A stretch of 32,000 bases of DNA. Source: Promethearchaeum syntrophicum (GTDB lineage: Archaea > Asgardarchaeota > Lokiarchaeia > Sigyniarchaeales > Promethearchaeaceae). This document shows, one piece after another, positions 2,838 to 25,598 of the stretch. The notes under the pieces are model-generated. The model was not told the origin of the DNA. It did not search any database and worked only from the letters and a program-made list of their open reading frames with translations. The position numbers and the translations under genes are program-made. The DNA is taken from positions 660,001 through 692,000 of the forward strand of contig NZ_CP042905.2 in NCBI RefSeq assembly GCF_008000775.2, given 5' to 3'. Every line of letters begins with the position of its first letter. Position 1 is the stretch's first letter.

Positions 2838-5297
2838 ATGAGTTTTGAATTATTAAAAATGGAAATTATTGATGCGGGATTATGTCAAGGGTGTGGTCTC
2901 TGTGCTGGGTTATGTAAACATATTGAAATGGTTGATTTAAAACCCGCGATTGTTGATTATTGCATAGTAACAAAAGAAGGATTAGCATGTGGTAAATGTT
3001 ATGATCAATGTCCTCAAATTACCCAAAAACAATTGAAAGTGAAAGAATCTCCAATAGATATTGTAGCTTTGAAAACTGCTGATGAAAAGATCCTTGAAAA
3101 AGCGGCTAGTGGAGGGTTTGTGACAACTTTGAACAAATATCTTCTTGATACTAAGAAAGTCACACAATTAATTGAAGTAAGAGATTTAGGAGGGATTCCA
3201 GAAGGGGAAATCACTACTGATCCTACAAAGGTTCATCAATATGCAGGAGTTGCATACGGTAGATCTGGATCCTTACAAAAATTAGTTGAAGTTTTAGGAG
3301 TAGAACATGGGCAAATTGGTATCGTTGGCGTCCCTTGCGAAATACGTGGAGCAGCAGAGTTAGAAAAACAAAATAAGGCAGATATTTTTAAAATCGGTCT
3401 TTTTTGCAATGCAAATATTAGATCAGGCGAACGAGATGATAATGGAGTTGTTTTTTCCCCATGCCGTCGAATGTGTCCTGCTGGTGTTGACGCATCAGGA
3501 TATGTTAATTACATCCGACAAGGTAAATTTCAAGAGGCTGTAGATCTTATTAGAGACATGAATCCTTTACCTAGTGTATGTGGGCGGGTATGCACTCATG
3601 AATGTGAATATAATTGCACATTAATAGGTACGAATCATCCTATAGCAATACGGGAATTAAAGAAATTTGTCACAGAATGGGAAATGGATTTAGAGAAGAA
3701 AAACTGGAAAAATCCAAAAAAAGAAGAAAATGCCAAAAAAGTTGCAATTATTGGATCTGGTCCCTCTGGGCTTTCATGTGCATATTATTTAGCTAATAAA
3801 GGTTATCGTCCAACAATATTTGAAAAAACAGATAAACTAGGCGGTATGTTAAGGTTTGGGATTCCAAAATTCAGATTACCAGATGAAGTCTTAGATTATG
3901 ATATTGAATTTATTAAGAGTGCTGGTGTAGAATTTAAGCTAAACTCTCCGATAGGTCCAAATTTAACATTTAATGATTTAAAAAAGCAAGGATATGAAGC
4001 GTTTTATGTAAGTTTAGGTCAATACAAACCTAATACTTTACACCTTCCAGGCGAAGATTTAGAGAATGTTCATATGGCTATTGATTTTCTAATGAAAAGA
4101 AAATATCGACATTGGGAAAATTTAGACGAATTCAAAGATAAAACAATTGGAATTGTTGGTGGTGGTCCTGTGGCAGTCGATGTTGCCCAAACAGCTCTTC
4201 GCTTAGGAGCAAAAAAAATAATTCTAATTGATATACAAAATGAGAAAGCTTTAACTATGGTTATTGCAGATATTCCTGAAAATGAGTATAAATTTATGGA
4301 GTACAAATTCAACACTTCAACATCCAAATTAACCCAAGAAGGGGATAAAATTCGGTTTCATAGTCACAAAATTAAAATTGACACAACAGATGGTAAATTC
4401 AAATTGGATAAGATTGAAGGAACAGAATTTACCTTTGATGTAGATAGTGTGGTTATGGCAGTGGGGCAATCTGTTGATTTTACGGAATTTGATAAAGCTC
4501 TCTCCCAAGAAATAAAAAAAGTTCGAGGAAAAATCTTGGTTGATGAATTAACATTTGAAACTAATGTACCTGGAATTTTTGCTGGTGGTGACATAGTAGT
4601 TCGCGGGAAAAACGTAGCCGTAGCAGCAATCGCCCATGGAAGAGAAGCTGCTGAATCAATTAAACGCTATTTAAAAAATCAAGATATGACAAAAGGTAGG
4701 ATGGATAGAACTACAATGTTTTTCCATGGTGCTCTCTCAGCGCCTGAAGATGTTTCTCAAAAACCACCTTTAGAAGTACCTGTGGATGAGACTTGGACAA
4801 ATTTTGAAGAATTTGAAGGGAAATTTACAAAGGAAATGGCAATGAATGAGGCAAATAGATGTTTTACGTGTAATTACTATTGCACTCATTGTCAAGATTT
4901 TGGTGCAATTCACGCCGATTTAACTGCGGGTGATATTGGTTCTGATAAAGATTTTACAACCGTTGTAATTTGGACTAAAAAAGGATATCGTGTGGTACAA
5001 GATATGATTAAAAAAGGTTTAGTGATCGAAGGACCAGTCCAAAAAGAGGCAGTTGATTTAGCAATAGATAAGAAAATGAAGCGAAAATTAATTGAACACG
5101 CTAAAACTCCTCGAGAGAAAATTGAGCAATGGATTAAATTAAATGGATCGGCAACGATACCAAAATTAAGTGAAATCCTCGATATGCCTGTTACAAATAC
5201 TCGTTATAACGCTTTACGATTAGCTCAGGAAAAGAAATTAAGTATGGAAATTATTGATGGAAATCCTGTTTTTTCAATAATGGTAGAAGAAATGTAA
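2838..5297 (+). CDS. Fusion flavoprotein: FrhB/FdhB-like module interrupted by a GltD/NfnB/SudA-like NAD(P)H:FAD oxidoreductase module, plus a C-terminal winged-helix-like tail
   Basis: - FrhB-like N part, aa 1-190: CQGCGLCAGLC, CGKCYDQCP, AASGGFVTTL, IGIVGVPCEIRG, IGLFCNA.
- GltD-like part, aa about 205-615: CPAGVDASGYVNYIRQGKFQEAVDLIRDMNPLPSVCGRVCTHECEYNC; Rossmann motifs KVAIIGSGPSGLSCAYYLA and IGIVGGGPVAVD; GIFAGGD..AIAHGREAA.
- FrhB-like C part, aa about 675-735: EANRCFTCNYYCTHC, HADLTAGDIGSD..TTVVIWTKKG.
- Tail, aa about 755-819: resembles a wHTH.
- Starts 2 nt after the preceding stop; GGAGG upstream. Confidence 0.7.
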   Translation: MSFELLKMEIIDAGLCQGCGLCAGLCKHIEMVDLKPAIVDYCIVTKEGLACGKCYDQCPQITQKQLKVKESPIDIVALKTADEKILEKAASGGFVTTLNKYLLDTKKVTQLIEVRDLGGIPEGEITTDPTKVHQYAGVAYGRSGSLQKLVEVLGVEHGQIGIVGVPCEIRGAAELEKQNKADIFKIGLFCNANIRSGERDDNGVVFSPCRRMCPAGVDASGYVNYIRQGKFQEAVDLIRDMNPLPSVCGRVCTHECEYNCTLIGTNHPIAIRELKKFVTEWEMDLEKKNWKNPKKEENAKKVAIIGSGPSGLSCAYYLANKGYRPTIFEKTDKLGGMLRFGIPKFRLPDEVLDYDIEFIKSAGVEFKLNSPIGPNLTFNDLKKQGYEAFYVSLGQYKPNTLHLPGEDLENVHMAIDFLMKRKYRHWENLDEFKDKTIGIVGGGPVAVDVAQTALRLGAKKIILIDIQNEKALTMVIADIPENEYKFMEYKFNTSTSKLTQEGDKIRFHSHKIKIDTTDGKFKLDKIEGTEFTFDVDSVVMAVGQSVDFTEFDKALSQEIKKVRGKILVDELTFETNVPGIFAGGDIVVRGKNVAVAAIAHGREAAESIKRYLKNQDMTKGRMDRTTMFFHGALSAPEDVSQKPPLEVPVDETWTNFEEFEGKFTKEMAMNEANRCFTCNYYCTHCQDFGAIHADLTAGDIGSDKDFTTVVIWTKKGYRVVQDMIKKGLVIEGPVQKEAVDLAIDKKMKRKLIEHAKTPREKIEQWIKLNGSATIPKLSEILDMPVTNTRYNALRLAQEKKLSMEIIDGNPVFSIMVEEM

Positions 5298-5318
5298 AAT
5301 TATAAGAAGTGAAATAAA

Positions 5319-5555
5319 ATGAACTATGACGCAACATTAGATACACAAGGTTTGGTATGCCCTGTTCCAGCATTAAAAACCAAAAAGCAATTAGGTAAGA
5401 TGAAACCTGGTCAAATCTTAAAGGTCGTAACAGATTATAAACCAGCAAGTGAATCAGTGCCCAGAGATTTAGCTAAAACAAAGCATAAGTTACTTGGTGT
5501 TGAAGAAGATGAAGATGAAGAAATTTGGGAAATTTATTTTGAATGTGTCAAATAA
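5319..5555 (+). CDS. tusA: TusA/SirA-family sulfur-carrier (sulfurtransferase-like) protein
   Basis: 78 aa. LDTQGLVCPVPALKTKKQL contains the conserved CPxP active-site Cys motif. PGQILKVVTD and the overall length fit TusA. Starts 21 nt downstream of the fusion gene. Confidence 0.8.
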   Translation: MNYDATLDTQGLVCPVPALKTKKQLGKMKPGQILKVVTDYKPASESVPRDLAKTKHKLLGVEEDEDEEIWEIYFECVK

Positions 5556-5601
5556 AAAAAAAAAAAATTAAATTTCTCAATACTATTCGGTTCTATTTTT
5601 T

Positions 5602-6705
5602 TTATTTTTCGATTTTTTCCTCTTTCTTATCATTAATCTCTTGTTTTTCCTCTTTCTCTTTTTGTTCTTTATCGGGTGTATAAAAAAAAGAAATAAAATC
5701 CATACTTTGATCGAAAGCTAAGTGCCGATCTGCTATAGCATCCAGATGAAGCAAATCCCTCATAAAAGCAACATTATTATGCCTTTGAGCAAATTCTTGA
5801 ATATGAGATTTGAAACCCTCGATATTGAGTACATTATAATCTTCAATTAATTTACTGATCTCAAAATTACCCCCTTCTAGAATGTAGGTTTGGAATTGCT
5901 TCCTATCTTTACTTCTTTTCATTGAAATTTTTTCAAAATCAAGACGTAGCATAATGTATATAATTATGAAAACAAACGAAAATTGAATGATATCTGCTGA
6001 TGGATTAACATCGGTTGTAGGAATGATTAATCGCAAGAAAAATAAAATCGGATAGTCATCAATTAAAGCATTGAGTGGATCTAAATTGACTGCAACAAAA
6101 GATCCGAGCCATGCGATCAATGTACACAATATGGTTTTTCCTAAGAAACAAGGAGGAATCGATTTCCAGTATGGATATTTCATCATACCCAAAGGAACTA
6201 GAATGGCATCATCAGGGAAGGGAGTCAATGCGAAAAAGAAGACTGTTAATGGAATTCTGGCTGGTTTTTCTTCGAATTTTAGTTTTATTCGATGAAATTT
6301 CTCTCCCATCTCCGATGATTTCATCTTTTTAGAGGCTCCTATTACCCTTCCAATAATGTAACTAGTAATTTCTCCAACGGCTGCTCCGAGTCCTGATACG
6401 ATTCCTAAAAGAATCCAGTTCGGATAACTTTGTGCGATGTCGTATACAATCAAAATATATGGGAATACAATTAAAATACTAGTATTTCCGAAAGTGGCAA
6501 ATGCAAATGCGGTTAATAGAGCTGTTGTAGATCCAACAGCTATATCGTGCCAGTGCATTGATAATGATGCAATATTATCATAAATCCATGTGTCTTCTTT
6601 AATTATAAAAGCTAATACATACAAAAACGTCAAAATGACAAAAGTAAAAATTTCTAAATTTCTGATACGAAAACGAAATTTTCCAATTCTAAATTTCTTG
6701 TCCAT
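5602..6705 (-). CDS. Integral membrane protein (possible VTT/DedA-YqaA-like domain) with a soluble C-terminal domain and a Lys/Glu-rich tail
   Basis: Several hydrophobic helices, and TPFPDDAILVPLGMM is reminiscent of YqaA/DedA-type VTT domains (weak). The ORF is open to 6786, but that start would overlap the divergent gene at 6768. The Met at 6705 (MDKKFRIGKFRF, basic, just before TM1) is the more plausible start. Confidence 0.5.
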   Translation of the reverse strand: MDKKFRIGKFRFRIRNLEIFTFVILTFLYVLAFIIKEDTWIYDNIASLSMHWHDIAVGSTTALLTAFAFATFGNTSILIVFPYILIVYDIAQSYPNWILLGIVSGLGAAVGEITSYIIGRVIGASKKMKSSEMGEKFHRIKLKFEEKPARIPLTVFFFALTPFPDDAILVPLGMMKYPYWKSIPPCFLGKTILCTLIAWLGSFVAVNLDPLNALIDDYPILFFLRLIIPTTDVNPSADIIQFSFVFIIIYIMLRLDFEKISMKRSKDRKQFQTYILEGGNFEISKLIEDYNVLNIEGFKSHIQEFAQRHNNVAFMRDLLHLDAIADRHLAFDQSMDFISFFYTPDKEQKEKEEKQEINDKKEEKIEK

Positions 6706-6767
6706 GAGTTTATTTTGAAGAAGAGAATTAAAAAATTTTGTAGTATTTATTAATTTACTGATATCAA

Positions 6768-7880
6768 ATGAAATTAATACTACCAATTGCTGGAGTAGGT
6801 CTTAGGTTAAGGCCTTTTACAAGCACAAAACCGAAAGGATTCGTACAAATTGCTGGATCTAGGGGAGTTGATCATATTTTAAAGAAAATAGGATCATCAT
6901 TGCCAGATAAAACACCTATCGCATTGATTACGGGTTATAAGAAACAACAGATTCAGCAATATGTTGAAGAAAACTATTCCAATCAATTTAATCCCTCGTT
7001 TATAGAACAGATCCCAAGGGGATATAATGGAGATATTCCTTATTTTTCAGGTTTAGGCCACGCAATTCTTCTCTCTAAAGAATGGTATGAAAGAACTGCC
7101 GATATCGAAGGTAGATTAAATCCAAATGATTCATTAATCTTTTTAAGTGATATGATCCCTGTAAACAATTACGATTTCATCTTGAAGGATTTAGAAAAAG
7201 AAGATAATGATGGAATAATTGGTTCAATGACTGTCCCGGATGAAAAAACTCGCTTTTACGGGATTATCGAAACGAATAAAGATGGATATATTTATTCTCT
7301 AGTTGAAAAACCTGAGAAAACCAAATCTAATCAAGCTATTGCAGGAGTTTATGCTTTTAAAGCTAAAGCGATGAAAAGATTATATGAAATTTTAGATGAA
7401 CAATATAAAAAACACTTAGATATTATCGATACTCTGGAGAAAAAAGAATTTCAATTAACACCTGCACTTCAACAATTGGTAGAAGAAGGATTTAAATTAA
7501 AAAGTGCCTCTTTTAAAAAGGGTATCTTGGATTTTGGGCGACCTGAAGCGTTATTAAACAGTAATCGAATATTACTTGACGCAATGGATTCAGATTATCA
7601 GAAACATAAAGTTGAAATCATAGATTCAGTAATAATTAATCCTTCAGCTATTGAGACTGGAACAAAAATTGTGCATTCAGTAGTTGGACCTTATTCCAGT
7701 ATAGGAAAAAATTGTGTAATTGAAGATTGTAACCTAAATAATGTTGTTATAGGTGACAATTGTGTTTTAAAAAAAATTATAACTAGGAAGTCTATTGTAG
7801 GAGATTTTGTCCAGATCGAATCCATCATTAAAAATCATATGACAATAGGGGACAACACAACCCTTTATAGCGATTTCTAG
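6768..7880 (+). CDS. Sugar-1-phosphate nucleotidylyltransferase with a C-terminal left-handed beta-helix (GMPP/GlmU-like architecture)
   Basis: N-terminal LILPIAGVGLRLRPFTSTKPKG matches the GxGxRLxPxTxxxPK NTP-transferase signature. The C-terminus has hexapeptide-like repeats (IGKNCVIEDCNLNNVVIGDNCVLKK ... IGDNTTL). Confidence 0.75.
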   Translation: MKLILPIAGVGLRLRPFTSTKPKGFVQIAGSRGVDHILKKIGSSLPDKTPIALITGYKKQQIQQYVEENYSNQFNPSFIEQIPRGYNGDIPYFSGLGHAILLSKEWYERTADIEGRLNPNDSLIFLSDMIPVNNYDFILKDLEKEDNDGIIGSMTVPDEKTRFYGIIETNKDGYIYSLVEKPEKTKSNQAIAGVYAFKAKAMKRLYEILDEQYKKHLDIIDTLEKKEFQLTPALQQLVEEGFKLKSASFKKGILDFGRPEALLNSNRILLDAMDSDYQKHKVEIIDSVIINPSAIETGTKIVHSVVGPYSSIGKNCVIEDCNLNNVVIGDNCVLKKIITRKSIVGDFVQIESIIKNHMTIGDNTTLYSDF

Positions 7881-7987
7881 CAATAATTGTTAATTAGTTA
7901 AGGATAAAACAGATCTCTAAAAAACTTTTATGAAATATTTTTAGGTCCTCGTAATTTTGTCATACTATAAGTCAATAAGCTGATATT

Positions 7988-9142
7988 ATGAAATTAAATC
8001 CTCAGAAAAACCCCCAAAAAATAGCTTTATTCGGTTTAAATTATGCAGGTAAGACATCAATCCTCAAAACAATTCTGTATGAATTTGAAGCATTTGCCCA
8101 TATTCTCCCTACAACCGGAGTAGATCGCACTGAATTGGATTTTTTTGGAAAATCTCTTCTAATTTGGGATTTTGGTGGTCAATCTGTTTATCGAGATGAT
8201 TATTTAAAGCAACCTATTAGGTATTTTCAACGTATAAAATATTTTTATTATGTTGTTGATGTGCAAGATATTGATAGGATCAAAGAGAGTGCTGAATATT
8301 TTCTCAAACTTATCAAATTAACAACAGAATACAGCGATGATTTTAAAATTTTCATCTTTTTTCATAAGATTGATCCAAATTATAGGGGAAAAACAAAATT
8401 TGAAGAATCGGAGAATCGATTCCTTGTTGAAATTCTTCCAACGATTAATGAATTAAAATTCACTCCTACTTATTTTTATACTTCTATATATAACCCTATT
8501 AGTGTTATTTCAGCTTTTTCACAACCACTATTAGGAAATGAGACAATTTATCAAACCTTAAGCGATGCCCTTGATAGTTTTTGCTTTAATATTGATCTTG
8601 AATTTGGGTTACTTTTTGTTCAAAACTTTATTATTGGTAGTCATTTCTCCGAGCCAGAAATAATCTCAAAAATTAGTAAAAAAATGACAATGTATTTGGA
8701 AGATTTAGATGAATTTGAAGATTGTCCACCCTTTACCGTCGATCCATATAAAATTTTTACAAAAAATTTCGTAATCTCAGTAGGAGACAATAATTTCTAT
8801 TTCCATTTTTCTGTAGGGATTAATATTCTAAACATTCCCGATGATATGGATGAAATTTTTGATGCTATGGATGAATACACATATAATTTGCGGAAAATAT
8901 TAGAAAATTCGGAATTAATTCGAACAGGTGAACTCAGAAATGAAGAAATTTTGAGTGGAATTAATGAATTGGAGACTAGATATATAATAACTGAAGAAGA
9001 AGAGCTCGAAGGTTTGGAACAAGAAGATAAAATCAAGAATATCCAAAGAAATTTGGAATTAGAGATAATGGAAAACAAGGTAATGGAAGAGGATGACCAA
9101 GAGAATATTGAAGAAGTTGAAGAAAATGATTTCAAAGATTGA
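7988..9142 (+). CDS. Rag/Gtr-like small GTPase with a roadblock-like C-terminal domain and an acidic tail
   Basis: G1 GLNYAGKTS; switch I PTTGVD; G3 WDFGGQ; G4 is HKID (HKxD as in Rag/Gtr, not NKxD); G5 region YTSIYNPISVISAFSQ resembles Rag TSIWD..AWS. The following segment (LLFVQNFIIGSHF) resembles the start of the Rag C-terminal roadblock domain. 384 aa fits a GTPase plus CTD architecture. Confidence 0.7.
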   Translation: MKLNPQKNPQKIALFGLNYAGKTSILKTILYEFEAFAHILPTTGVDRTELDFFGKSLLIWDFGGQSVYRDDYLKQPIRYFQRIKYFYYVVDVQDIDRIKESAEYFLKLIKLTTEYSDDFKIFIFFHKIDPNYRGKTKFEESENRFLVEILPTINELKFTPTYFYTSIYNPISVISAFSQPLLGNETIYQTLSDALDSFCFNIDLEFGLLFVQNFIIGSHFSEPEIISKISKKMTMYLEDLDEFEDCPPFTVDPYKIFTKNFVISVGDNNFYFHFSVGINILNIPDDMDEIFDAMDEYTYNLRKILENSELIRTGELRNEEILSGINELETRYIITEEEELEGLEQEDKIKNIQRNLELEIMENKVMEEDDQENIEEVEENDFKD

Positions 9143-9199
9143 TGAAAATCATTTGAAGAATGAAAAAAATTAATAACTCTTTGAGTGAAATATTTTATT

Positions 9200-10621
9200 A
9201 TGATATATGTTGCTTTTGATGAAGCTCACAAAGAACGTGGAAACTTATCTACAAATTTTAAATCACTTAGCAGTATGTTAAATGAAAATGAGTTTACTTG
9301 TTATCCTTATGCGGAATTCCCCATTGCAAAAAATAATTTAGCCCCATTCGATATTTTAGTTCTTGGATGCCCCGATAATGCGAAGTTCAGTAAGCTAGAA
9401 ATCGATACGATTAAAAATTGGGTTTTGACTGAGGGAGGCGGATTACTTATGTTAAGCCACGCAGGTGGAGATAAAGGGCGACGTTCAAATTTAAGTGAAC
9501 TTTCAGAGCAATTTGGCATAATATTTGAAAATGATCAAGTTCTTGATAATGTTAATAACATGGGTGTAGAAAATCTTCCCCTTATTACTAATTTTGGGTT
9601 TCCACATCCAATTACTGAAGAGATTTCTTCAATATGTTATCGTGCAGGATGCAGTTTAACCATTTCTAATATGTCTGTAACTCCTGTAGTATCATCAAGC
9701 GCAGATTCTGAACCCGTAGAGAGTCCATTAATATTATCAACAGAAATGGGCGAAGGTCGCATTGTAGCTATAGGGTCCTATGAAATGTTTCGAGATAAAA
9801 TATCTGGAGGATTTAATGAAGGATCTCATGCTCAATTGATATTAAATATCTTTAATTGGCTTAAAACCTCAAAAAGAGAAAAAATTCGATCTGAAGGAGG
9901 GGCAGCAACGACTCAAAATGGTTATCAAGAAGGGGTAACCACTGAAGAGACAAAATTACCTCTCGAAAATATTGACCAAAATCAAGTTTCGCAATATGCA
10001 AATATTCCTTTGAAGAGTTATCAATCCGATGTAAAAATTGTTTCAAATGTAGAATTAGTAAAAGCATTTGAAGGTATAGTAACTGATTTTTATTCATTTA
10101 AGGATAGAATGCTGAAAGAATTTGAAAATCTTCAAACCAATCTTTCTAATCTTGTGGGAGCAGTCATTGCATCAGAAGAAGATTTTGCTAATGTATCTCA
10201 TCCAACCCCCCCTGAAGATTCCTTGAATTTAACTCCTCCTCCAAGTACAAGTACCAACAATAACAAACATGATGAAAATGATGAAGAAGTAAAAATCTCA
10301 ACTCCTACTGATTATTCTTCAATAAATGAAAAATCTATTGAACTTGGAATAGAAAAAGAAAAATTTCAAGCAGAAAAACAATCCAAAATAGAGGCAAATC
10401 TTAAATTAAAAAAAACAAAAGAAGAGGTTGATGCAGAGATAGAGAGTCTTAGGAACAAATTGAATTCAATTAAAAATTTAACATCTTTTGTCGAAAAGAA
10501 ATTTTCATCAGGAAAATTATCGAAGAAAAACTATGACAAACAAACGAAAAAACTTTCAACTGATCTTAAAGAAACTCAAAATAAAATTGATGAATTAACC
10601 CAAGAATTAAAAGATATGTAA
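9200..10621 (+). CDS. GIFT-like (IFT52/GldG/DUF4350-type, GATase1-like fold) domain protein with a Pro/Ser/Thr-rich linker and a C-terminal coiled coil
   Basis: - ORF is open from GTG 9185; the first ATG is at 9200.
- aa about 7-228: FDEAH..., FDILVLGCPDNAKFSKLEIDTIKNWVLTEGGGLLMLSHAGGD, LSEQFGIIFENDQVL, GRIVAIGSYEMFRD, IFNWLKT. This pattern fits the GIFT/ABC_transp_aux/DUF4350 family.
- aa about 335-360: Pro-rich (PTPPEDSLNLTPPPSTS).
- aa about 385-478: heptad-rich K/E coiled coil. Confidence 0.5.
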   Translation: MIYVAFDEAHKERGNLSTNFKSLSSMLNENEFTCYPYAEFPIAKNNLAPFDILVLGCPDNAKFSKLEIDTIKNWVLTEGGGLLMLSHAGGDKGRRSNLSELSEQFGIIFENDQVLDNVNNMGVENLPLITNFGFPHPITEEISSICYRAGCSLTISNMSVTPVVSSSADSEPVESPLILSTEMGEGRIVAIGSYEMFRDKISGGFNEGSHAQLILNIFNWLKTSKREKIRSEGGAATTQNGYQEGVTTEETKLPLENIDQNQVSQYANIPLKSYQSDVKIVSNVELVKAFEGIVTDFYSFKDRMLKEFENLQTNLSNLVGAVIASEEDFANVSHPTPPEDSLNLTPPPSTSTNNNKHDENDEEVKISTPTDYSSINEKSIELGIEKEKFQAEKQSKIEANLKLKKTKEEVDAEIESLRNKLNSIKNLTSFVEKKFSSGKLSKKNYDKQTKKLSTDLKETQNKIDELTQELKDM

Positions 10622-10643: not shown

Positions 10644-10865
10644 TCACGTTTCTTTTTTATAACTAATTTTACTACACACAACTCCGCGTTCATGCCAATT
10701 TTCATCAATATAAATGATAGCAAAATGATCTGAATGATGGTAAACTAGCGGATAAGGCCATTTATCAGCTCTTTCTTTAAATTCCTTTTCTAAACTTTCT
10801 GTAACTTGAATAGCTAATGTTTCTTTACAGTATTCGCAATAAAATCTAATAGTTTTTCCTGTCAT
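10644..10865 (-). CDS. Small hypothetical protein (73 aa) with an N-terminal CxxC
   Basis: Intact ORF 30 nt downstream of, and co-oriented with, the dehydrogenase gene. FYCEYC motif. No family recognised. Confidence 0.35.
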   Translation of the reverse strand: MTGKTIRFYCEYCKETLAIQVTESLEKEFKERADKWPYPLVYHHSDHFAIIYIDENWHERGVVCSKISYKKET

Positions 10866-12295: not shown

Positions 12296-14473
12296 ATGAA
12301 AAATTTAAAAAAAAAATCAATTGCAATTCTCGCTTTATTCATGATATCCACATTTGCAGGCTCAATGGTTTCCAATGCGACGGCTGAAAAGAGTTATGTT
12401 TTACCCGATGACCCAGACGTCTTAAATGCTGGTCTTGCACAAATGTTTGGGATGTTCCGTGAATTTGGAGCATCAGGAGAATTGTTAGGCGAGGTTTTGA
12501 TGATGATGTTTGAAAATTTCGAAACTATGAACGCCACACAAGAAATTGATGGGGTATACGTTTTAAATGCCTCCGTCATAAAAGCACAAGAATCGGGAAA
12601 CTTCACATATGGTGAAGCACAAACCGAAGAATATACTCCTTGGGGAGTCTATAGTCTAGAAAACGCTACTCTTACAGAAGATCAAGATGAATATCCATAT
12701 TTCCTTTTAAATGAAACTGGAACTATTGAATATAATAAAACTGAAGGTGTTTCTATTACATTTATCATTTGGGATGATGATGGCACTTTTATCGATGCAC
12801 TTGATAAATTAATAAGCACTTTCAAAGAATTTAAAATGATTTCAGAAGATGATGTGCCCGATGAAGTTGCAGAAGAAGCTGCCTTAAGAGCAGTTATTTC
12901 AGCTTTAACATACTTCTTTATCCATGTTAACGATATTATCACGGGAGATGAAGTCATAGTTCTCAACACAATCGCTTTTACTAATTATGTTGCAGATTTT
13001 GATGGAAGCATCGATGCAAATTGGTATGTTACTGAAGAAGGAGTTAGAACACATTCTCGTTTACTTATTGATGCATTACCTACCTACGATGAAGATTACA
13101 CTCAAATTGCAGATTATTATCGTGATGAATTCATGCAATATCTCCTTGATGAGAATAATTTTGCTGACGGTCAAAAAACTCAAAATTACACATCATTTAG
13201 TTTCGATGTTATTGAAATTTGGTTAAAAGAGTTTCAAATATCAATTGATTCACAAGCGATTTTAGGCGCATTAGCTGGAGAAGAAGGAGCGGAATTTTTC
13301 GATGATAAGACCGCCACAGATATTTTCCAAGAATTAAAACTTGAATTTTATGTGTTTACTCATCATTTCCAGAATTGGTATTTATTTGATGATAATAAAT
13401 TTGATAAAGATTACTCTAATGCCACTACTGAGATTCAAGATCAAGCAGAAGCGGCAGTTGGAAACGGTGTTCCTGATGTTCTTTTTGAAGAAATAGGTAC
13501 TTTTGAAGGTGAACCAGTACATGCGATTACAGACGCTGAAGTTGTTGATTATATTCTGTTCAGAGGCGCAGATTCTTGGGAATTCAAAGAACCCGTTTAT
13601 GATGCTGAAAATAACAAAATGGAATGGGGTATTCGTGCAGAGAATTTAGGATTTAGGGTAATTCCTATGGGATTAAACGATGATGAAATCTCATTAACTG
13701 ATGCTCCTGTTGAATATATGGAATTCATGGAATTGGGATTTTCATTTGAACCTGAAAATAAAAAAGTAGTTGAAACCGATGATTATATAAACGCACAAGG
13801 TCAAGAGACAATGGGATCTGCCAAAGTCAAACTTATTCAAAGCTTTGGACAATGGGACTTAGATACAGATGGTAAACCATTTACTCCACATTTAAAGAAT
13901 ACAAGTTTAGATTTAACTACAGTATATATGAGCACAATTTTCCACTTTAAACTTGCAATTGAAAATAAACAGATTGTTGATGAAGGTGAAACTCCCTCAG
14001 CTGGATTACTTAATGAAACAAATTATGACAGAGACACTCATCACATTAGAGTTGGAGATATCAACCAAGAATTGCCTTTAGCAGATATCGACATTGCAGG
14101 ACCAGAATATAACCAATCAGGCGCTAACACAGGAGATTATCCAGCAGAGACAACTATCATTCCAACGGTTTATGCAGAATTTGAAGGTCAAAGTAGTGAG
14201 ACTTATGAACAAGAAGATACTTCTATAGGTCAAATTAACGCAACCATAAATATTGAGTTTTCAACGTTAATCTATGCTGTTTCCTATCCTACATTTGGAA
14301 TGGGAAATGAAAATTATACAACTGGAGACGAAATAATTCATGACCCAACATTCAGTGTGTTCATAACCACAATAAATCCAGGTGTTATTGCAATTATTTT
14401 GGTTATTGGTGCAGTCGGATTAGCAGGAATTGCTGCTGTTTTGATCACCAAAAAGAAAAATGCTCAATTTTAG
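12296..14473 (+). CDS. Secreted, highly acidic, sequon-rich surface protein with a C-terminal membrane anchor
   Basis: N-terminal signal-peptide-like MKNLKKKSIAILALFMISTFAGSMVSNA. C-terminal PGVIAIILVIGAVGLAGIAAVLITKKK (TM helix plus basic tail). By eye, 14 N-X-S/T sequons. Strong D/E bias. Confidence 0.65.
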   Translation: MKNLKKKSIAILALFMISTFAGSMVSNATAEKSYVLPDDPDVLNAGLAQMFGMFREFGASGELLGEVLMMMFENFETMNATQEIDGVYVLNASVIKAQESGNFTYGEAQTEEYTPWGVYSLENATLTEDQDEYPYFLLNETGTIEYNKTEGVSITFIIWDDDGTFIDALDKLISTFKEFKMISEDDVPDEVAEEAALRAVISALTYFFIHVNDIITGDEVIVLNTIAFTNYVADFDGSIDANWYVTEEGVRTHSRLLIDALPTYDEDYTQIADYYRDEFMQYLLDENNFADGQKTQNYTSFSFDVIEIWLKEFQISIDSQAILGALAGEEGAEFFDDKTATDIFQELKLEFYVFTHHFQNWYLFDDNKFDKDYSNATTEIQDQAEAAVGNGVPDVLFEEIGTFEGEPVHAITDAEVVDYILFRGADSWEFKEPVYDAENNKMEWGIRAENLGFRVIPMGLNDDEISLTDAPVEYMEFMELGFSFEPENKKVVETDDYINAQGQETMGSAKVKLIQSFGQWDLDTDGKPFTPHLKNTSLDLTTVYMSTIFHFKLAIENKQIVDEGETPSAGLLNETNYDRDTHHIRVGDINQELPLADIDIAGPEYNQSGANTGDYPAETTIIPTVYAEFEGQSSETYEQEDTSIGQINATINIEFSTLIYAVSYPTFGMGNENYTTGDEIIHDPTFSVFITTINPGVIAIILVIGAVGLAGIAAVLITKKKNAQF

Positions 14474-14628: not shown

Positions 14629-15675
14629 ATGAGTTTTTGGAATGAAGTAGATGGATTAATTGAAAAGGGAAAAACATCTAAGCAAATTAAAGTAACTGCA
14701 GATGATTTAATTGAACTTCGAAATAAAATGAAAGATTTACAGTTATCATTAAGTACCATAGAAAAAAATCTTCAAGTAGAAACAGAAAAGGTCAAAATTT
14801 ATCAACGAAATTTTGCAGATGAACAAGAAAAGGTTAATATGCTTCAACGTAACATATCAGAAAAGGTCTCGATAATTACTCAAAGAGAAGGAGAAATCAC
14901 GCAAATTCAGCAACATTTAAATGAAAAAAATACTATTACTACACAACTTCAAGCAGAGTTAGACAATTTAAAGGCGGATATAGGTAAACGAGATCTTGAG
15001 ATTAAAAATGCTTTCACAACTGTAACTCAAGCAGAGGAAATGCTTGGAAAAAGAGATCAACAAATAGAGGATTTTAAATCTTTAATCAATCAAAAAAATC
15101 TTGAGATCGATGAAATGAAGAGAAATTTAAATGAAGGACAACAAAATGCGGCTTCTCTTAATGGAAAAGAACAAGAATTAGAAAGATTGAGAAAAGAAAT
15201 TCAAAGTTCCCAATCGCAAGACTCTAAAGTTCCTGGATTACAATTAAAAATTCAAACTTTGCAAGCTAAGATTCAAGAATTAGAAAGTAATTCAGTCACC
15301 AGAGCAGACTTTGATTCGATTTTCAACCAAAATAAAGAGTTAGAGGGAAGATTTAATTCACTTAACTTCAAGGTTGGGGCATTAACAAATGAAAATGAGC
15401 AATTGAAAGGGGAATTAGCGGAGAAAATGAAAAAAATAAATTCTTTGACAGAACCACATGCTGTAATGACTCCTTCTTTAGGAAAATCCAACAATCCTTC
15501 TACAATTACATCTACAACAACAGATGATGCATTTGGAACTGCTAGAATTGTTTGCCCCCATTGTGGTTCTTCTAAATTAACTGTTATTGAAGATAAAAGT
15601 AGAATAATTTCCTATATCCCTGCACCAGTATATGCTAAGAAGAATGTTTGTTCTCAATGTGGTTTTGAGTTTTAA
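14629..15675 (+). CDS. Long coiled-coil protein with a C-terminal zinc ribbon
   Basis: About 270 aa of heptad-like Q/E/K/L-rich sequence, then an S/T-rich linker, then CPHCGS...(24 aa)...CSQCG. AGGTGG lies upstream of the ATG. Confidence 0.6.
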   Translation: MSFWNEVDGLIEKGKTSKQIKVTADDLIELRNKMKDLQLSLSTIEKNLQVETEKVKIYQRNFADEQEKVNMLQRNISEKVSIITQREGEITQIQQHLNEKNTITTQLQAELDNLKADIGKRDLEIKNAFTTVTQAEEMLGKRDQQIEDFKSLINQKNLEIDEMKRNLNEGQQNAASLNGKEQELERLRKEIQSSQSQDSKVPGLQLKIQTLQAKIQELESNSVTRADFDSIFNQNKELEGRFNSLNFKVGALTNENEQLKGELAEKMKKINSLTEPHAVMTPSLGKSNNPSTITSTTTDDAFGTARIVCPHCGSSKLTVIEDKSRIISYIPAPVYAKKNVCSQCGFEF

Positions 15676-17324: not shown

Positions 17325-17879
17325 TTAAATTAAGCTTTTTGCCAGATAATTGAAAAATTCTTCAACCCCAAAACCATTCTGAGAAGAAGTTTCAAAATAA
17401 GAATCTGCATTAAATTTCTCTTTGAATTCATCTATTTGGTCTGATGAAATTATTGATGGATCTTCCGTTACTAAATCTTTCTTTGTTCCAAGTAAGAAGA
17501 ATTTTGTTTTTGAATCACCCCAAACTCCACCTTCTTTTAATAATCCTATCCAATTCTTTATCCGATAAAGTGTGGCAACCCTCGATAAATCAAATGCTAA
17601 TATTATTCCTTCCGCACCTTGTATATATTCGTTCAGAATGAATCTGAATCGTTCTTGACCTGCAAAATCCCAAAGCAATAAAGTCATTTGGTATTTATCT
17701 GCATTATCCAATGTAATATCAACTTTTTTAATAAAAAAATCTGTTCCTATCGTCATTTTGGTAGAATCTACAAAAACTTTGTTGACATAACGATGTAGGA
17801 GTGTAGTTTTCCCAACTCCTCCTTCCCCTAAAATAATAATTTTTCTTTTAATTTTTTTGATATTTGAATCGTTTAACAT
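17325..17879 (-). CDS. Rab/Ras-like small GTPase
   Basis: G1 GEGGVGKTT; switch I TIGTDF; G3 WDFAGQERF; G4 GTKKDL; G5 ETSS. No C-terminal Cys prenylation motif. Confidence 0.85.
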   Translation of the reverse strand: MLNDSNIKKIKRKIIILGEGGVGKTTLLHRYVNKVFVDSTKMTIGTDFFIKKVDITLDNADKYQMTLLLWDFAGQERFRFILNEYIQGAEGIILAFDLSRVATLYRIKNWIGLLKEGGVWGDSKTKFFLLGTKKDLVTEDPSIISSDQIDEFKEKFNADSYFETSSQNGFGVEEFFNYLAKSLI

Positions 17880-21617: not shown

Positions 21618-24600
21618 TTATGCAGATACAGTTATTTCCACGATATCTTCATAACCCTCGGAGGTTATTACTTGAACCCAGATAGTTTCTCCAGTAGTTA
21701 ACCCCCCTGCTATATTTGCGATATCTATATAATAAAGAGCAAGGTTTCCAGATTCACTACCTGTGAGAATATAGTCTGTTATTTCAGTTCGAGCGAGAAG
21801 ATTATCCCACATCGTAATATCACTACTAGAAATGTCTAAATATTGAAAATCCCCGGAAATACCAATTTTTAATCTAATTCCGTCAATTGTTGCACTAGTG
21901 TTATGATTGATTGATAACATTAGGTGAATCGAATCTTCGCTAGCATCTGCCATGGTATTACCATAATTTTCATGCGGTATAATTTCATCCGGATCAATTA
22001 TTCGCGTTATATTATCTGCTGTAGGTAATCGAGATGTTAAATTTACATCACTAAAAACAAACGGACTTGATGTAGTATTCACCATTACATTTAATGTGTT
22101 AGTGAGATTTAATTTAAAACCATCAAAGGATACATCAATTAATGCAATGTCGTCATGGTTTAAAATTTTGTTTCCAACTGTAATATTTACATCTTGGATT
22201 TCAATTGCTTCAGTGCCATTAAGAATAATGCTATCTAATTCTACAGGATCAAAACCAACATTCTTAACTACTAATCGTAACGATTCATTAGTAAAAGCAG
22301 ATGTCATTGAATTTTCGCCTGTTATTATCGAAATCATTGAAGATTGATTACGAGGAACAAAATAAGCATTATCAGATGCGCAAGTGTCTCCATCTTGTCC
22401 TGATATATAAATACTAACCGGTGAATTTCTTTCAACTTCTGAAACATTTGCATAAATATTTCTTTGATCTCCTGGATCTAAGAAAAGCTCTTCAGGAGTA
22501 TCAGTCCCCACAATGAAATCATTAATTTGGACTCCATTAGCATATAAACTCTCAAGACCAATTGTCTCAAAACCATCATTTCTCACAGTAAGTGTCAAAC
22601 TTCCATTTTCTAAGAGATAAGACTGTGCGTTGTAATTCAAATAGTACTCATTATGTGGAATATTCATATTTTCATAAATTGAATAATCAAAGAGGAATCT
22701 AGATTCAGGCAATATATCTAAATCACTAGGCAATATTGTTAGCTTATAATTTTCCTTATTGAATCCTAAGACGGTTTCTGCAATGCCTCCCTCGGAAGTA
22801 TGAACTCGAATATAATTACTCTCAGAAAAATCAAAGGTTGTTGCTGTTCCTGTGTCTTCTATGTAAAATGACTCCGTTTCATTAGGACCAATTATCAAGT
22901 TCAAATTAAGATCTGGATTAATTTCCATATAGTCATTGTTTATAGAGATATTTGAGATTTTTTGAGGTTGATTACCTTCGTTTTTCACGACAATTTTAGC
23001 ATTTGATTGAAATCCCGATAATTCTAATCGAGAACTTTCTCTATCTATTTCGATTTTTATTTCATCTGGAAGTTTCACTTGAGTATCAACGGTATCGTTT
23101 GAAAGCGTATATAATAAACCATTTTCCTTTTGAACGCTAACTTCCATTTCTAAATTGTAAATCTCAGAAGTATCCCAAGTTTCTTCAGTGTTAAACCAAA
23201 CATACCTGCTCTCATTTGGACTGATTGGATCGGCGCTATTTTCAACAGAAAAGTTGTATGCTTTATCTGAGACTTTCAAAGAACTAATTTCGAAATCTAA
23301 TTTTCCAGTATTCGTTATCAGAGCATTACCATATCCATTAGTATCAATATTTTGCTTGCTGATAGAAAATGAAGTGTCTAAAGGAGTGTAATCTATTTTA
23401 TACAATTTTACTAATTTATTCGCTGAAACATATGTTGGTTCAAAGAATTCTAGTTGATAATCTCCATTTACCGTTGGATATTCTTTCCATAATTTACCAT
23501 TATCGTCGACTTTGGGTGAAATACTTCCTTCAGGATATCCTCCGACTTGGATAGCTAACTGTTGGATTGGATATGAGTCTGTTTGAGAAAGACCATCAGC
23601 AGATATTAATTCATTGTTAAACAGCAGTTTTGCTAAAGTACTGTTGAACCATGCTTCTCTGTATAATCCAGATGATCCATTAATATATTTTTCTTCATCA
23701 AATACTGTATCAACTGTCTGATCTTCTCCGCCATACCAATTATCTTTGGTCAAACTTCCGTAATTTTCATAGCTTGCTGTATTATCATTACAGATACGAA
23801 CCATCCAAGGCCATTTTCCCTCATCTCCTCCTATTCCGGTCACTAAATGCCCGAAATATACTAAAACATATTCTGCTTTTAGGAGTTTGAACGCTTCCGC
23901 GCTATACCGTTCTTGCGTTTGCATCATTGCCATTCCAGTTAATCCTATCCGAGTTTGATTCCAAGTACCGTTATCATTAACAGAAGTAACATTTCCTATA
24001 GATGTGATCCAATAACCATAATCCCACCAAGATACTACAACGGCCTCACTTGGGAGATTATTATCCATCCAAGTGAGAGACTCTTCCCAATCATGAAATG
24101 ATCCCAAAGAAACTAAATCTGAATAACCCATTTGTTCTGAAGAAATCGTTATTGCATGATTTGCTTGAACGAATAATAGTAATCCGATCATGGCATAAAC
24201 AATCAAACCTTCAGGTTTTGCAATAGTTCGTTTAAGTTGTTTTTTACGCCTTCTGGTAATAGTTTTCTCTTTTTTCATTAAATTCCCAAACATTTTCAAA
24301 ATATTTGATAACGCATAACCCCCTAATAGTGCTAAAGCAGGCGCGAAAAGGAGAATAATTCGTATCATACTCCCAGTAAAGTAGAATAATGTCACTACAA
24401 AAATTACCATTAAAATATCTTCCGTATTTCCTCGACGGATTGCAAAATATACGCCAGGAACAACTAATAATAAAGGTATTAGAGAATTATAATAAAATGC
24501 ACTCCAAGGAGCTGGTGCATGTTCTCCTACTGAGGCTACTAAATGAATATCCTCACGAATGCTCGGATTTATTATAGATGCTAATCTAGATGCTAAATTA

Positions 24601-25598
24601 AAAGGAATTAAATCGGGTACTTGCCAGAATATTATTAAAGCGATTATGGCGATTGGAATTGAAGCCCATTTTATACCCGTTAGAATTTTTGTATAAACTT
24701 CCGTATCCCTTTGCATATACATAATATGATAACCAATCAGAAAAACAAGAAATAATAGTGGAACAATGAAATCCATTTCTTTTATCATCTTAGACCAAGC
24801 AAAAGAAGGATCCAAAGTAAAAATAAGTAATCCTATCCCAATGGTCGCGCTGTATGCTAATAATATACGAGCATTGTATTTGTTTGCTAATATCAGAATT
24901 GCCACAAGCAAGGGAATTAATAAAAAGGGATAAGTCAGCCCTCCCCAACTTAATGCTAAATATCCCAATGATATTCCAGCGTAAATTCCATGCGAAAGTT
25001 TTCCAGATTTCACCGCTTTGATGAAAAATAAGAAAACCAGCAAGACTGCGAACACTCCGATCGTTTCGTTGTCGTAGAAGCCACAAACAGTACGTTGCAT
25101 ATGCCCCGGTGAGAATGCTAAGAAGAAAGCGGCGATAAGTCCCGCTCGTTTATCCAAAATTTCTTTTCCGAGAAAATACATAACGAGAACGGTTGCACCC
25201 CCCATAAATGCAGGGAAATAGAATGCCACTTGGAATGGTGTTACTGGAATTCCGAGGGCTGTGATAATCCAGTAAATTATCGCAGTTGTAAAAAGCAACC
25301 CCGGTCGAAGATTAAATCTATCGACACCTTCTGGGAACCAAAATTGAAAATCATGGAAATGGAACCAATCATATAGAGACATGTTGATGACGGCTTTTGT
25401 AGAGCTGAATTGGTACCAAGGATCGAAGGCCTTGATGAGGTACGTTCCTGTAATAACTGGTGACATTCGAACTAAAACAGCGAGAATAAGAACGAAGATC
25501 AGAGCAAGATAAAAGAATGGAGCGTCGCTGGGTATTTTTACTGATGTTTTAACTTTATCAGATTGGTTTGAAAACCAATTTTTAAATTTATTAACCAT
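21618..25598 (-). CDS. aglB: Oligosaccharyltransferase AglB (STT3 homologue) with a long C-terminal extension
   Basis: WWDYGYW (aa 524-530, nt 24015-24029 for WWDYG), AFDPWYQF, GFYDNETIGVFA, SVGEHAPAPW, VNDNGTWNQT, and a multi-TM N-terminal half. aa about 740-1326 form an extra beta-rich region. Confidence 0.92.
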   Translation of the reverse strand: MVNKFKNWFSNQSDKVKTSVKIPSDAPFFYLALIFVLILAVLVRMSPVITGTYLIKAFDPWYQFSSTKAVINMSLYDWFHFHDFQFWFPEGVDRFNLRPGLLFTTAIIYWIITALGIPVTPFQVAFYFPAFMGGATVLVMYFLGKEILDKRAGLIAAFFLAFSPGHMQRTVCGFYDNETIGVFAVLLVFLFFIKAVKSGKLSHGIYAGISLGYLALSWGGLTYPFLLIPLLVAILILANKYNARILLAYSATIGIGLLIFTLDPSFAWSKMIKEMDFIVPLLFLVFLIGYHIMYMQRDTEVYTKILTGIKWASIPIAIIALIIFWQVPDLIPFNLASRLASIINPSIREDIHLVASVGEHAPAPWSAFYYNSLIPLLLVVPGVYFAIRRGNTEDILMVIFVVTLFYFTGSMIRIILLFAPALALLGGYALSNILKMFGNLMKKEKTITRRRKKQLKRTIAKPEGLIVYAMIGLLLFVQANHAITISSEQMGYSDLVSLGSFHDWEESLTWMDNNLPSEAVVVSWWDYGYWITSIGNVTSVNDNGTWNQTRIGLTGMAMMQTQERYSAEAFKLLKAEYVLVYFGHLVTGIGGDEGKWPWMVRICNDNTASYENYGSLTKDNWYGGEDQTVDTVFDEEKYINGSSGLYREAWFNSTLAKLLFNNELISADGLSQTDSYPIQQLAIQVGGYPEGSISPKVDDNGKLWKEYPTVNGDYQLEFFEPTYVSANKLVKLYKIDYTPLDTSFSISKQNIDTNGYGNALITNTGKLDFEISSLKVSDKAYNFSVENSADPISPNESRYVWFNTEETWDTSEIYNLEMEVSVQKENGLLYTLSNDTVDTQVKLPDEIKIEIDRESSRLELSGFQSNAKIVVKNEGNQPQKISNISINNDYMEINPDLNLNLIIGPNETESFYIEDTGTATTFDFSESNYIRVHTSEGGIAETVLGFNKENYKLTILPSDLDILPESRFLFDYSIYENMNIPHNEYYLNYNAQSYLLENGSLTLTVRNDGFETIGLESLYANGVQINDFIVGTDTPEELFLDPGDQRNIYANVSEVERNSPVSIYISGQDGDTCASDNAYFVPRNQSSMISIITGENSMTSAFTNESLRLVVKNVGFDPVELDSIILNGTEAIEIQDVNITVGNKILNHDDIALIDVSFDGFKLNLTNTLNVMVNTTSSPFVFSDVNLTSRLPTADNITRIIDPDEIIPHENYGNTMADASEDSIHLMLSINHNTSATIDGIRLKIGISGDFQYLDISSSDITMWDNLLARTEITDYILTGSESGNLALYYIDIANIAGGLTTGETIWVQVITSEGYEDIVEITVSA

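Follow-up and report, generated by a model that had tools for sequence, protein, structure and literature searches.

The 32,000-nucleotide window of Promethearchaeum syntrophicum analysed here (contig NZ_CP042905.2, positions 660,001 to 692,000; coordinates below count from the first letter of the window) carries a forward-strand gene for a protein whose N-terminal GIFT domain is homologous to that of the intraflagellar transport (IFT) protein IFT52. In the list of open reading frames (ORFs) of the window it appears as a single long ORF at 9185..10621, which reads 478 amino acids (aa) from a GTG. This GTG at 9185 is an alternative start; since the N-termini of homologues read M[PS]YxIAFD, and the 90% identical protein P0001 opens MIYIGFDEAH, translation probably begins at the ATG at 9200 to give 473 aa, and residue numbers are counted from this codon. 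Both IFT52-like stretches quoted in the initial annotation, FDILVLGCPDNAKFSKLEIDTIKNWVLTEGGGLLMLSHAGGDKGRRSNLSELSEQFGIIFENDQVL and GRIVAIGSYEMFRDK...LILNIFNWLKT, are present in the translation of the ORF. A chance ORF or chance motif is ruled out by the E-values given below and by at least 71 conserved homologues, and the ORF is a real gene. The window has a G+C content of about 32%, and the neighbouring genes are archaeal (Mvh/Hdr-like redox genes, isopropylmalate/isocitrate dehydrogenase, an STT3/AglB homologue and archaeal-type ribosomal proteins). The gene and its parts are as follows.

9200..10621, forward strand: the whole gene, encoding a GIFT-linker-helical protein of 473 aa when begun at ATG 9200; stop codon at 10619-10621.
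9200..9892 (aa 1-231), forward strand: GIFT domain with a class-I-glutamine-amidotransferase-like alpha/beta fold, from Pfam, AlphaFold2 (AF2), Foldseek and hhalign.
9455..9481 (aa 86-94), forward strand: motif SHAGGDKGR, directly after the strand at residues 81-85; every residue but K is invariant across the family (alignment A1); IFT52 has LGEGGE.
9524..9547 (aa 109-116), forward strand: motif FENDQVLD, nearly invariant; IFT52 has VNNDAVV.
9773..9796 (aa 192-199), forward strand: motif GSYEMFRD, with G, S, Y, E and R invariant; IFT52 has GSxHMFSD.
9893..10045 (aa 232-282), forward strand: linker 1, polar and predicted disordered (predicted local distance difference test score, pLDDT, 30-50), variable and poorly aligned in the full-length family alignment A2.
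10046..10189 (aa 283-330), forward strand: central long helix of the AF2 model, pLDDT 86-89.
10190..10405 (aa 331-402), forward strand: linker 2, acidic, polar and predicted disordered (pLDDT 34-46).
10406..10618 (aa 403-473), forward strand: C-terminal helical hairpin, helices 407-436 and 442-472 (pLDDT 91-96), with the motif G-x-[IL]-x3-Y-x-K.

The assignment of the N-terminal ~230 residues to a GIFT domain, which the initial annotation had made from the letters alone, is borne out by Pfam, phmmer, hhalign and AF2/Foldseek in agreement. The best Pfam match is PF23355, IFT52_GIFT (E = 7.5e-17, 61.7 bits against a cut-off of 27.2), and ABC_transp_aux (PF09822), DUF4350 (PF14258) and OST48_N (PF03345) give no Pfam match to the protein at E<=1. 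Among PDB entries phmmer returned IFT52 chains only (5fmr_A, 1.6e-9; 8bd7_B, 4.7e-9; 5fms_A, 2.8e-7), the alignment to 5fms_A spanning residues 11-229, and a 21-member family profile picked out these three again (8.5e-14 to 1.6e-10) without any other significant match. When hhalign compared the 44 full-length family sequences of A2 with the 22 eukaryotic IFT52s of alignment A3, it gave 98.3% probability and an E-value of 2.4e-14 over 202 columns. The AF2 model of the domain reaches a pLDDT of 91.3 and a predicted template modelling (TM) score of 0.91. Its top Foldseek matches in the PDB are the N-terminal domains of Chlamydomonas and mouse IFT52 (IFT52N; 5fmr, 5fms; TMq 0.83-0.87), at E-values from 4.9e-17 to 6.9e-15, on which it superposes with TM scores of 0.82-0.91, a root-mean-square deviation of 2.0-4.3 Å and 22-24% identity. 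Weaker by about nine orders of magnitude in E-value are STM3548 (4.7e-8) and human OST48 (7.8e-8; the match is 6s7t_G, E 8e-8, TMq 0.68), followed by GH42, ThuA-like and PdxT-type domains; IFT52N is thus clearly the better structural match than OST48. The model and its Foldseek neighbours show the class-I glutamine-amidotransferase-like alpha/beta fold, and the PF23355 and hhalign scores place the domain in the GIFT superfamily formed by IFT52_GIFT, ABC_transp_aux, DUF4350 and OST48_N. Residues 1-231 form a GIFT domain with homology to IFT52N, and IFT52 is the best match among curated families and solved structures alike.

The likeness to the IFT52 N-terminal GIFT domain (PF23355; 5FMR, 5FMS and 8BD7 chain B) is that of a common fold at 22-24% identity over ~225 residues, with the motifs P..KF[ST]..E...[IL]K, GG[DE], N[LI]..L.E.[FY]GI...ND.V, HP, G[RK]....GS..MF.D and [FL].WL in common. 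The three IFT52 patterns given in the initial annotation proved accurate against real IFT52 sequences, whose consensus (A3) reads GPREKFTASEFEALKxYLDxGG..LGEGGE, TNINFLLEExGIMVNNDAVV and GKLxVLGSxHMFSD...LTT; the query needs two one-residue indels in the first. Unlike IFT52, the Asgard family has its own invariant SHAGGDxGR, FEN[DN]QVLD and GSYE.FRD. The IFT52-type interaction residues are not kept either. In Chlamydomonas IFT52, K130 and R204 are needed for binding to IFT-B2 (IFT57/38) (PMC4818760); in the phmmer and hhalign alignments R204 aligns to a conserved Ser/Thr, and K130 falls in an IFT52-specific insertion just past the shared HP motif.

Past the GIFT domain the two proteins part. 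No column of the family alignment beyond 224 was aligned to IFT52 by hhalign; the IFT52 central domain (PF23352, IFT88/IFT70-binding) has no match at E<=1, against 37-130 bits for real IFT52s, and the C-terminal domain Itf52_C (PF21178, IFT46-binding) has no Pfam or profile-profile match, against ~101 bits. Pfam and hhalign thus rule out that the C-terminal half is homologous to the central or C-terminal domains of IFT52, and on these profile comparisons the remainder of the protein appears to share no homology with it. The parallel that had been drawn between the two layouts is accordingly reduced to analogy: like IFT52, the protein appears to be cytosolic and places its GIFT domain N-terminally, before a flexible Pro-containing region and a helical C-terminus, but it is without the central and C-terminal domains of IFT52 and belongs to a host without a cilium. 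No hydrophobic, transmembrane or signal-like stretch is present, and since the highest 19-residue Kyte-Doolittle mean is 0.88, the protein is predicted to be soluble and cytosolic.

The architecture is kept across the 44 homologues of A2, with conservation of the central helix, of a basic patch and of the hairpin at the C-terminus. A 'coiled-coil tail', as first described, agrees with the AF2 helices at 283-330, 407-436 and 442-472 and with the Pfam matches in the tail, which are of coiled-coil type only. The 'Pro-rich middle' of the same description was overstated: linker 2 is 10% proline, with one PTPP...TPPPS cluster (PTPPEDSLNLTPPPS), and ends in the basic patch KLKKTK. The central helix is conserved in long-form homologues (KISxKSELxxLLxxFxNQI) and missing from short forms of 330-350 aa. 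Most long-form homologues also carry LTxLPPKPxSL in linker 2 (P0046-P0068, A2 columns ~440-470), a motif on which an SH3-, WW- or TPR-like partner may dock; the query counterpart, LNLTPPPS at residues 340-347, is degenerate. The hairpin has the consensus ...LxxKLNSxxNLLxFxEKKxxxGxxxxKxYxKRxxxLxxDxKKTxxxIxEI.... Its motif hydrophobic-x2-K/R-x3-G-x-[IL]-x3-Y-x3-x-x-L (query residues 430-455) recurs in the divergent archaeal GIFT families P0098, P0261, P0090 and P0197, and judging from these sequences it looks like a shared ancient module. We take the hairpin to resemble SHOCT-type helices; a Pfam SHOCT match was not obtained.

A word-indexed search found 71 homologues at 47-90% identity, all named 'hypothetical', in metagenome-assembled genomes (MAGs) of Lokiarchaeota/Promethearchaeota, Thor-, Hod- and Hermodarchaeota. 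Scanning one genome per GTDB species gave 139 genomes with a relative. The best 80 of these 139 are Asgard, including Lokiarchaeum ossiferum, Harpocratesius and Sigynarchaeum, except for two or three records labelled otherwise; the Nanopelagicaceae- and Bathyarchaeota-labelled records among the 80 are probably mis-binned. The closest genome matches are Promethearchaeum sp. MAGs (87-89% amino-acid identity), with L. ossiferum at 65%, and records labelled Hodarchaeota are among the carriers. Across the family the GIFT domain has a mean column identity of 67% and 47 invariant columns (A1). Between MK-D1 and the other classes its identity is 56-64%, compared with 45-65% for the adjacent nucleotidyltransferase and 56-72% for isopropylmalate/isocitrate dehydrogenase; the domain is conserved like the dehydrogenase and more than the nucleotidyltransferase, and is under strong purifying selection. 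In three loci, L001 (7721-8248), L018 and L075, a second GIFT-matching ORF of 175-241 aa lies directly downstream of the main gene; a tandem duplication or a frameshift in the assembly could account for it, and several genes in L001 are split.

A profile search of 1.84 billion representatives returned 2,374 matches at E<=1e-3, 83 of them at E<=1e-30, and these fall into tiers. The family itself scores 320-406 bits; a second tier at 160-260 bits consists of paralogous GIFT-plus-helical-tail proteins; and a third includes multi-GIFT proteins and giant surface proteins. The matches with prokaryotic source names are all archaeal (Promethearchaeota, Heimdall-, Thor-, Jord-, Njord- and Helarchaeales, Bathyarchaeia, Thermoprotei, Methanofastidiosia) except for one Zixibacteria-labelled record, P0229, which is probably mis-binned. 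A few distant archaeal relatives are named 'Gldg family protein' by NCBI, and no eukaryotic IFT52 is among the best 150 matches of the search. Multi-GIFT architectures exist, since two proteins match the Asgard GIFT profile in several stretches: P0177 of the crinoid Anneissia japonica, uncharacterised and 1,886 aa long, in 11, and P0169, a 1,087-aa protein of a Thermoprotei archaeon, in three.

The second-tier families (P0098, P0112, P0100, a Heimdallarchaeota-type group of 330-350 aa, P0261 of Jordarchaeaceae and P0122 of Njordarchaeia) resemble the query in having an N-terminal GIFT domain, then a linker and C-terminal helices; the G-x-[IL]-x3-Y hairpin motif is often common to them, and all are unannotated. 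They differ in identity (35-47%), in the motif at the strand-turn elbow and in gene neighbourhood, P0098 for example adjoining a Rad50/Mre11/HerA cluster, and some outscore the query family on IFT52 profiles. The domain assignment as such is not new, for precomputed Pfam IFT52_GIFT matches already exist for these proteins; what is uncharacterised is the Asgard-wide family of cytosolic GIFT-linker-helix proteins, for which there is no NCBIfam model. The supposition that the protein had no earlier description in archaea held up: we found no paper describing IFT52-like GIFT proteins in Asgard archaea, and none that relevantly joins IFT52 with Asgard, 'eukaryotic signature' or Lokiarchae*. The accessible part of the supplement to Eme et al. 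2023 uses an 'IFT/Cilium' class only for tiny sporadic clusters and there contains neither 'IFT52' nor 'GIFT' as a term.

The initial annotation had also ventured that the protein is closer to IFT52 than the bacterial homologues are. IFT52N is indeed its best solved structure, but other prokaryotic GIFT proteins score 64-103 bits on IFT52 profiles, equal to the query family or better. On our own eukaryotic IFT52 GIFT profile the query family reaches 64-74 bits, the second tier 65-103 (P0112, 103; P0098, 92) and the single-domain third tier 64-80. PF23355 is likewise the top Pfam match, at 50-100 bits, of second- and third-tier prokaryotic GIFT proteins, including giant surface proteins with PKD and beta-helix domains, and we therefore dropped the IFT52_GIFT top match as proof of special kinship. 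On that model true IFT52s score 320-400 bits, against 34-62 for the query family. Mouse IFT52 scores 42.8 bits on the query family's profile (E 3.5e-6 at library size), and the bacterial-type ABC_transp_aux model gives real IFT52s 28-57 bits; by these measures IFT52 seems to stand at roughly the same distance from both. Searches by tblastn with mouse IFT52 and with the query yielded no bacterial GIFT sequences from plasmids.

The phylogeny that had been suggested for GIFT domains was run as a neighbour-joining tree (gamma-Poisson distance, 100 bootstraps, 108 sequences, 232 columns) of eukaryotic sequences and of prokaryotic ones from the query family and the second and third tiers. Eukaryotes are monophyletic in it, but their sister group is unstable: third-tier sequences in 34 replicates, second-tier in 20, a mixture of both in 10 and the whole or nearly the whole prokaryotic set in 36, with the query family alone in 0 of 100. 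A merged cluster of 144 archaeal sequences scored 203.6 (E 1e-30) against IFT52 in hhalign, far above other groups; we discounted this family-level ranking, since the other groups were mostly single sequences and the comparison is unfair. These sequence comparisons do not appear to support the query family as the closest relative or special sister of IFT52. We see it as one branch within a wide radiation of GIFT proteins, apparently archaeal, from which the GIFT domain of IFT52 may derive.

The genes next to the GIFT gene in the window are the following.

6768..7880, forward strand: sugar-1-phosphate nucleotidyltransferase-like protein, 370 aa, NTP_transferase plus left-handed beta-helix (LbH), from Pfam, NCBIfam and PDB matches.
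7988..9142, forward strand: Gtr1/RagA-Arf-like GTPase, 384 aa, with a long acidic C-terminal extension (Pfam Gtr1_RagA 1e-23, Arf 1.3e-16).
10644..10865, reverse strand: convergent Cys/His-rich ORF, 73 aa (CEYC...HHSDH), tail-to-tail at 22 bp from the GIFT stop.

All NCBIfam matches of the nucleotidyltransferase-like protein lie below the equivalog cut-offs, and LbH_EIF2B is matched only sub-threshold. Genes were called and clustered at 86 loci, the upstream gene being readable in 82. A ~365-aa NTP_transferase+LbH gene lies directly upstream of the GIFT gene on the same strand in 71 of the 82 and one gene further in 5, so that the pairing is conserved in ~93% of these loci and in several Asgard classes. 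The gaps between the two genes are mostly 100-165 bp, and separate promoters are therefore likely. Outside Lokiarchaeales most genomes show the gene order c5 (an unknown protein of 127 aa), c3 (likewise unknown, 326 aa), a GPN-loop GTPase (PF03029, 1.4e-43), the nucleotidyltransferase and the GIFT gene; it spans loci L016-L086, for example L038 at 3266-8365.

In the window the Rag-like GTPase ends 57 bp before the GIFT ATG. It is essentially identical to the 'GTP-binding protein' of PDB 8zla_A/9m28 (E 3.9e-254; residues 2-384 against 3-385), and a second Asgard relative is present in the PDB as 8yl2_A (7.8e-33); we found no paper citing 8ZLA. A Rag/Arf-like GTPase between the nucleotidyltransferase and GIFT genes occurs only in the window and in three Promethearchaeum MAGs (L007-L009); L. 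ossiferum and ~70 other genomes are without an adjacent Rag-like GTPase at the GIFT locus. Short-form GIFT proteins (330-337 aa, 52% identical) stand in another conserved cluster, in which a Rag/Arf-like GTPase of 514 aa and a 323-aa unknown protein precede the GIFT gene. This cluster (L002 1-6993, L003 1-8629, L005 1231-7014) has several Rag/Arf-like GTPases of 277-560 aa and a response regulator, to which L003 adds a 265-aa coiled-coil protein and a Roadblock/LC7 protein. The 323-aa protein (c33) is not a homologue of c3, the pair having an hhalign probability of 0.5%. GTPase adjacency as a family-wide feature is thus ruled out, being confined to the window, the three MAGs and the separate short-form cluster. 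Because small GTPase genes of MK-D1 are generally not in operons with their regulators (PMC10933270), the adjacency is weak evidence either way.

The window holds further genes of note. The Cys/His-rich ORF (cluster c18) has no Pfam or NCBIfam family match and occupies position +1 in nine Lokiarchaeales-type loci. Further downstream lie a 725-aa protein (12296-14473, forward strand) without a Pfam or NCBIfam match, kept downstream in Promethearchaeum and Harpocratesius loci, and after it a 348-aa SMC/Rad50-like coiled-coil protein (14629-15675, forward strand). A Ras/Rab-family small GTPase of 183 aa (17325-17879, reverse strand; Pfam Ras 3.9e-35) adjoins Hdr-like and ferredoxin genes. The STT3/AglB oligosaccharyltransferase (OST) homologue (21618-25598, reverse strand), unusually long at 1,326 aa, lies at a distance of 11 kb. 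A GIFT domain is found in OST48, a subunit of the eukaryotic OST, too, but no link between the STT3/AglB and GIFT genes was seen. By Pfam, the window holds no IFT46, IFT88 or IFT70 gene.

As to function, we favour, with confidence that goes no further than even, a non-enzymatic cytosolic scaffold or adaptor belonging to one branch of the archaeal GIFT radiation. In IFT52 the N-terminal domain is an interaction surface without catalytic residues that binds no sugar, and the IFT57/38 coiled coil cradles the GIFT domain along with IFT88 (PMC4818760, PMC9753473). By comparison, the strongly conserved GIFT surface of the Asgard protein would be the docking site for at least one partner protein, much as IFT88 and IFT57/38 dock on the GIFT domain of IFT52; the hairpin at the C-terminus would serve self-association or coiled-coil pairing; and the flexible linkers, with their Pro-containing short motif in most homologues, would tether further partners. 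A shared catalytic nucleophile is argued against by variation at the elbow: Ser-His (SHAGGD) is invariant in the family, and the sister families have GNAGGD, SNASGD, ASSGGD or NNDGGD and IFT52 LGEGGE. Several points weigh against a scaffold. No interaction partner emerged from the analysis; the gaps to the conserved upstream gene do not imply co-transcription; oligomerisation through the hairpin is inferred from the model; and as the IFT-B2-binding residues of IFT52 are not conserved, its mechanism is not simply transferable. Moreover, the conserved polar residues S86, H87, D91, R94, E110, N111, Q113 and D116, and likewise N120, E124, N125, H136, R148, E195 and R198, would suit a ligand-binding or catalytic site too.

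It is because so many polar residues are invariant that an enzymatic or ligand-binding role tied to the nucleotidyltransferase stays the main rival, even if we consider it unlikely. The protein would then be an enzyme or small-molecule binder of the glutamine-amidotransferase-like superfamily, working with the upstream nucleotidyltransferase-like protein in sugar-nucleotide or glycan metabolism. The GATase1-like fold, whose neighbours are glycoside-hydrolase accessory domains, ThuA-like proteins and PdxT/HisH, is in keeping with this, as are the invariant Ser-His at the strand-turn elbow, the persistence of the NTP_transferase+LbH gene beside the family and the presence of OST48, a GIFT protein of the glycosylation machinery, among the structural matches. 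Yet the elbow carries Ser86-His87 and not Cys, and no canonical Cys-His-Glu triad can be assigned from sequence; the Ser-His pair is not kept in the closest paralogous families or in IFT52, whose own domain is reported to be neither catalytic nor sugar-binding (PMC4818760); the intergenic gaps suggest separate promoters; and long disordered linkers with a coiled-coil tail would be unusual in a metabolic enzyme. That the protein is a GldG-type auxiliary component of an ABC transporter, after the older Pfam name ABC_transp_aux, is so improbable as to be effectively refuted for the query. GldG/ABC_transp_aux, DUF4350 and the OST48 N-terminal domain are indeed fellow members of the GIFT superfamily, whose first definition PMC4818760 credits to Beatson & Ponting 2004; some relatives have weak precomputed PF09822 matches, the 'Gldg family protein' names point the same way, and ABC_tran and ABC2_membrane genes lie just downstream of the short-form locus L002. 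Unlike those membrane-anchored or extracytoplasmic proteins, however, the query appears soluble, without a transmembrane segment and without an ABC-transporter or OST context. P0072 and P0034 reach just 21-22 bits on PF09822 against a cut-off of 34.7, and the query has no match to it; no ABC transporter gene stands beside the GIFT gene in the window or in 80 genome loci, and the ABC neighbours of L002 are absent from the sister loci L003 and L005. Pfam, hydropathy and gene neighbourhood together rule out a GldG-type transporter accessory.

Alternatively, the protein could stand to IFT52 as its direct counterpart in archaea or as its ancestor: a GTPase-associated scaffold in a proto-IFT-like cytosolic transport or assembly process that eukaryotes inherited vertically. 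IFT52 as the best solved structure and best curated family, the cytosolic order of GIFT domain, Pro-containing linker and helical C-terminus (which differs from membrane or secreted GIFT proteins), the Asgard-wide distribution with Hodarchaeota-labelled records, the Rag-like GTPase directly upstream in the window and the short-form relatives within clusters of Rag/Arf-like GTPases and a Roadblock protein are all compatible with such an ancestry. We nevertheless judge it quite improbable: homology with IFT52 is confined to the GIFT domain; K130 and R204 are not conserved; other prokaryotic GIFT proteins match IFT52 profiles at least as well as the family does, and P0112 and P0098 score higher; no bootstrap tree makes it alone the sister of eukaryotes; and the adjacent GTPase at this locus belongs to one genus. 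A wider formulation, in which the Asgard cytosolic GIFT-linker-helix proteins as a whole (the query family with its Heimdall-, Jord- and Njordarchaeal paralogues) act as GTPase-linked scaffolds and are the vertical archaeal source of the IFT52 GIFT domain, is doubtful as well.

IFT52, the backbone subunit of IFT-B, is of unclear origin, and the only links drawn for its GIFT domain until now are to OST48 and bacterial GldG. An Asgard-wide GIFT family with IFT52N as its nearest structure and a similar build offers a concrete candidate, open to experiment, for a pre-ciliary precursor or, failing that, a new scaffold of Asgard archaea. Were the archaeal source of the IFT52 GIFT domain confirmed, the family would be an unlisted eukaryotic signature protein, and intraflagellar transport would owe its core scaffold to an archaeal precursor older than the cilium and not to bacterial gliding motility. 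Should the link to IFT52 hold only at the level of the superfamily, the protein would still be among the better-conserved uncharacterised Asgard proteins, with a fixed genomic partner. The host is cultured, or very close to a cultured organism, and a solved structure exists for the Rag-like GTPase next door. The GIFT family offers a lead for work on eukaryogenesis.

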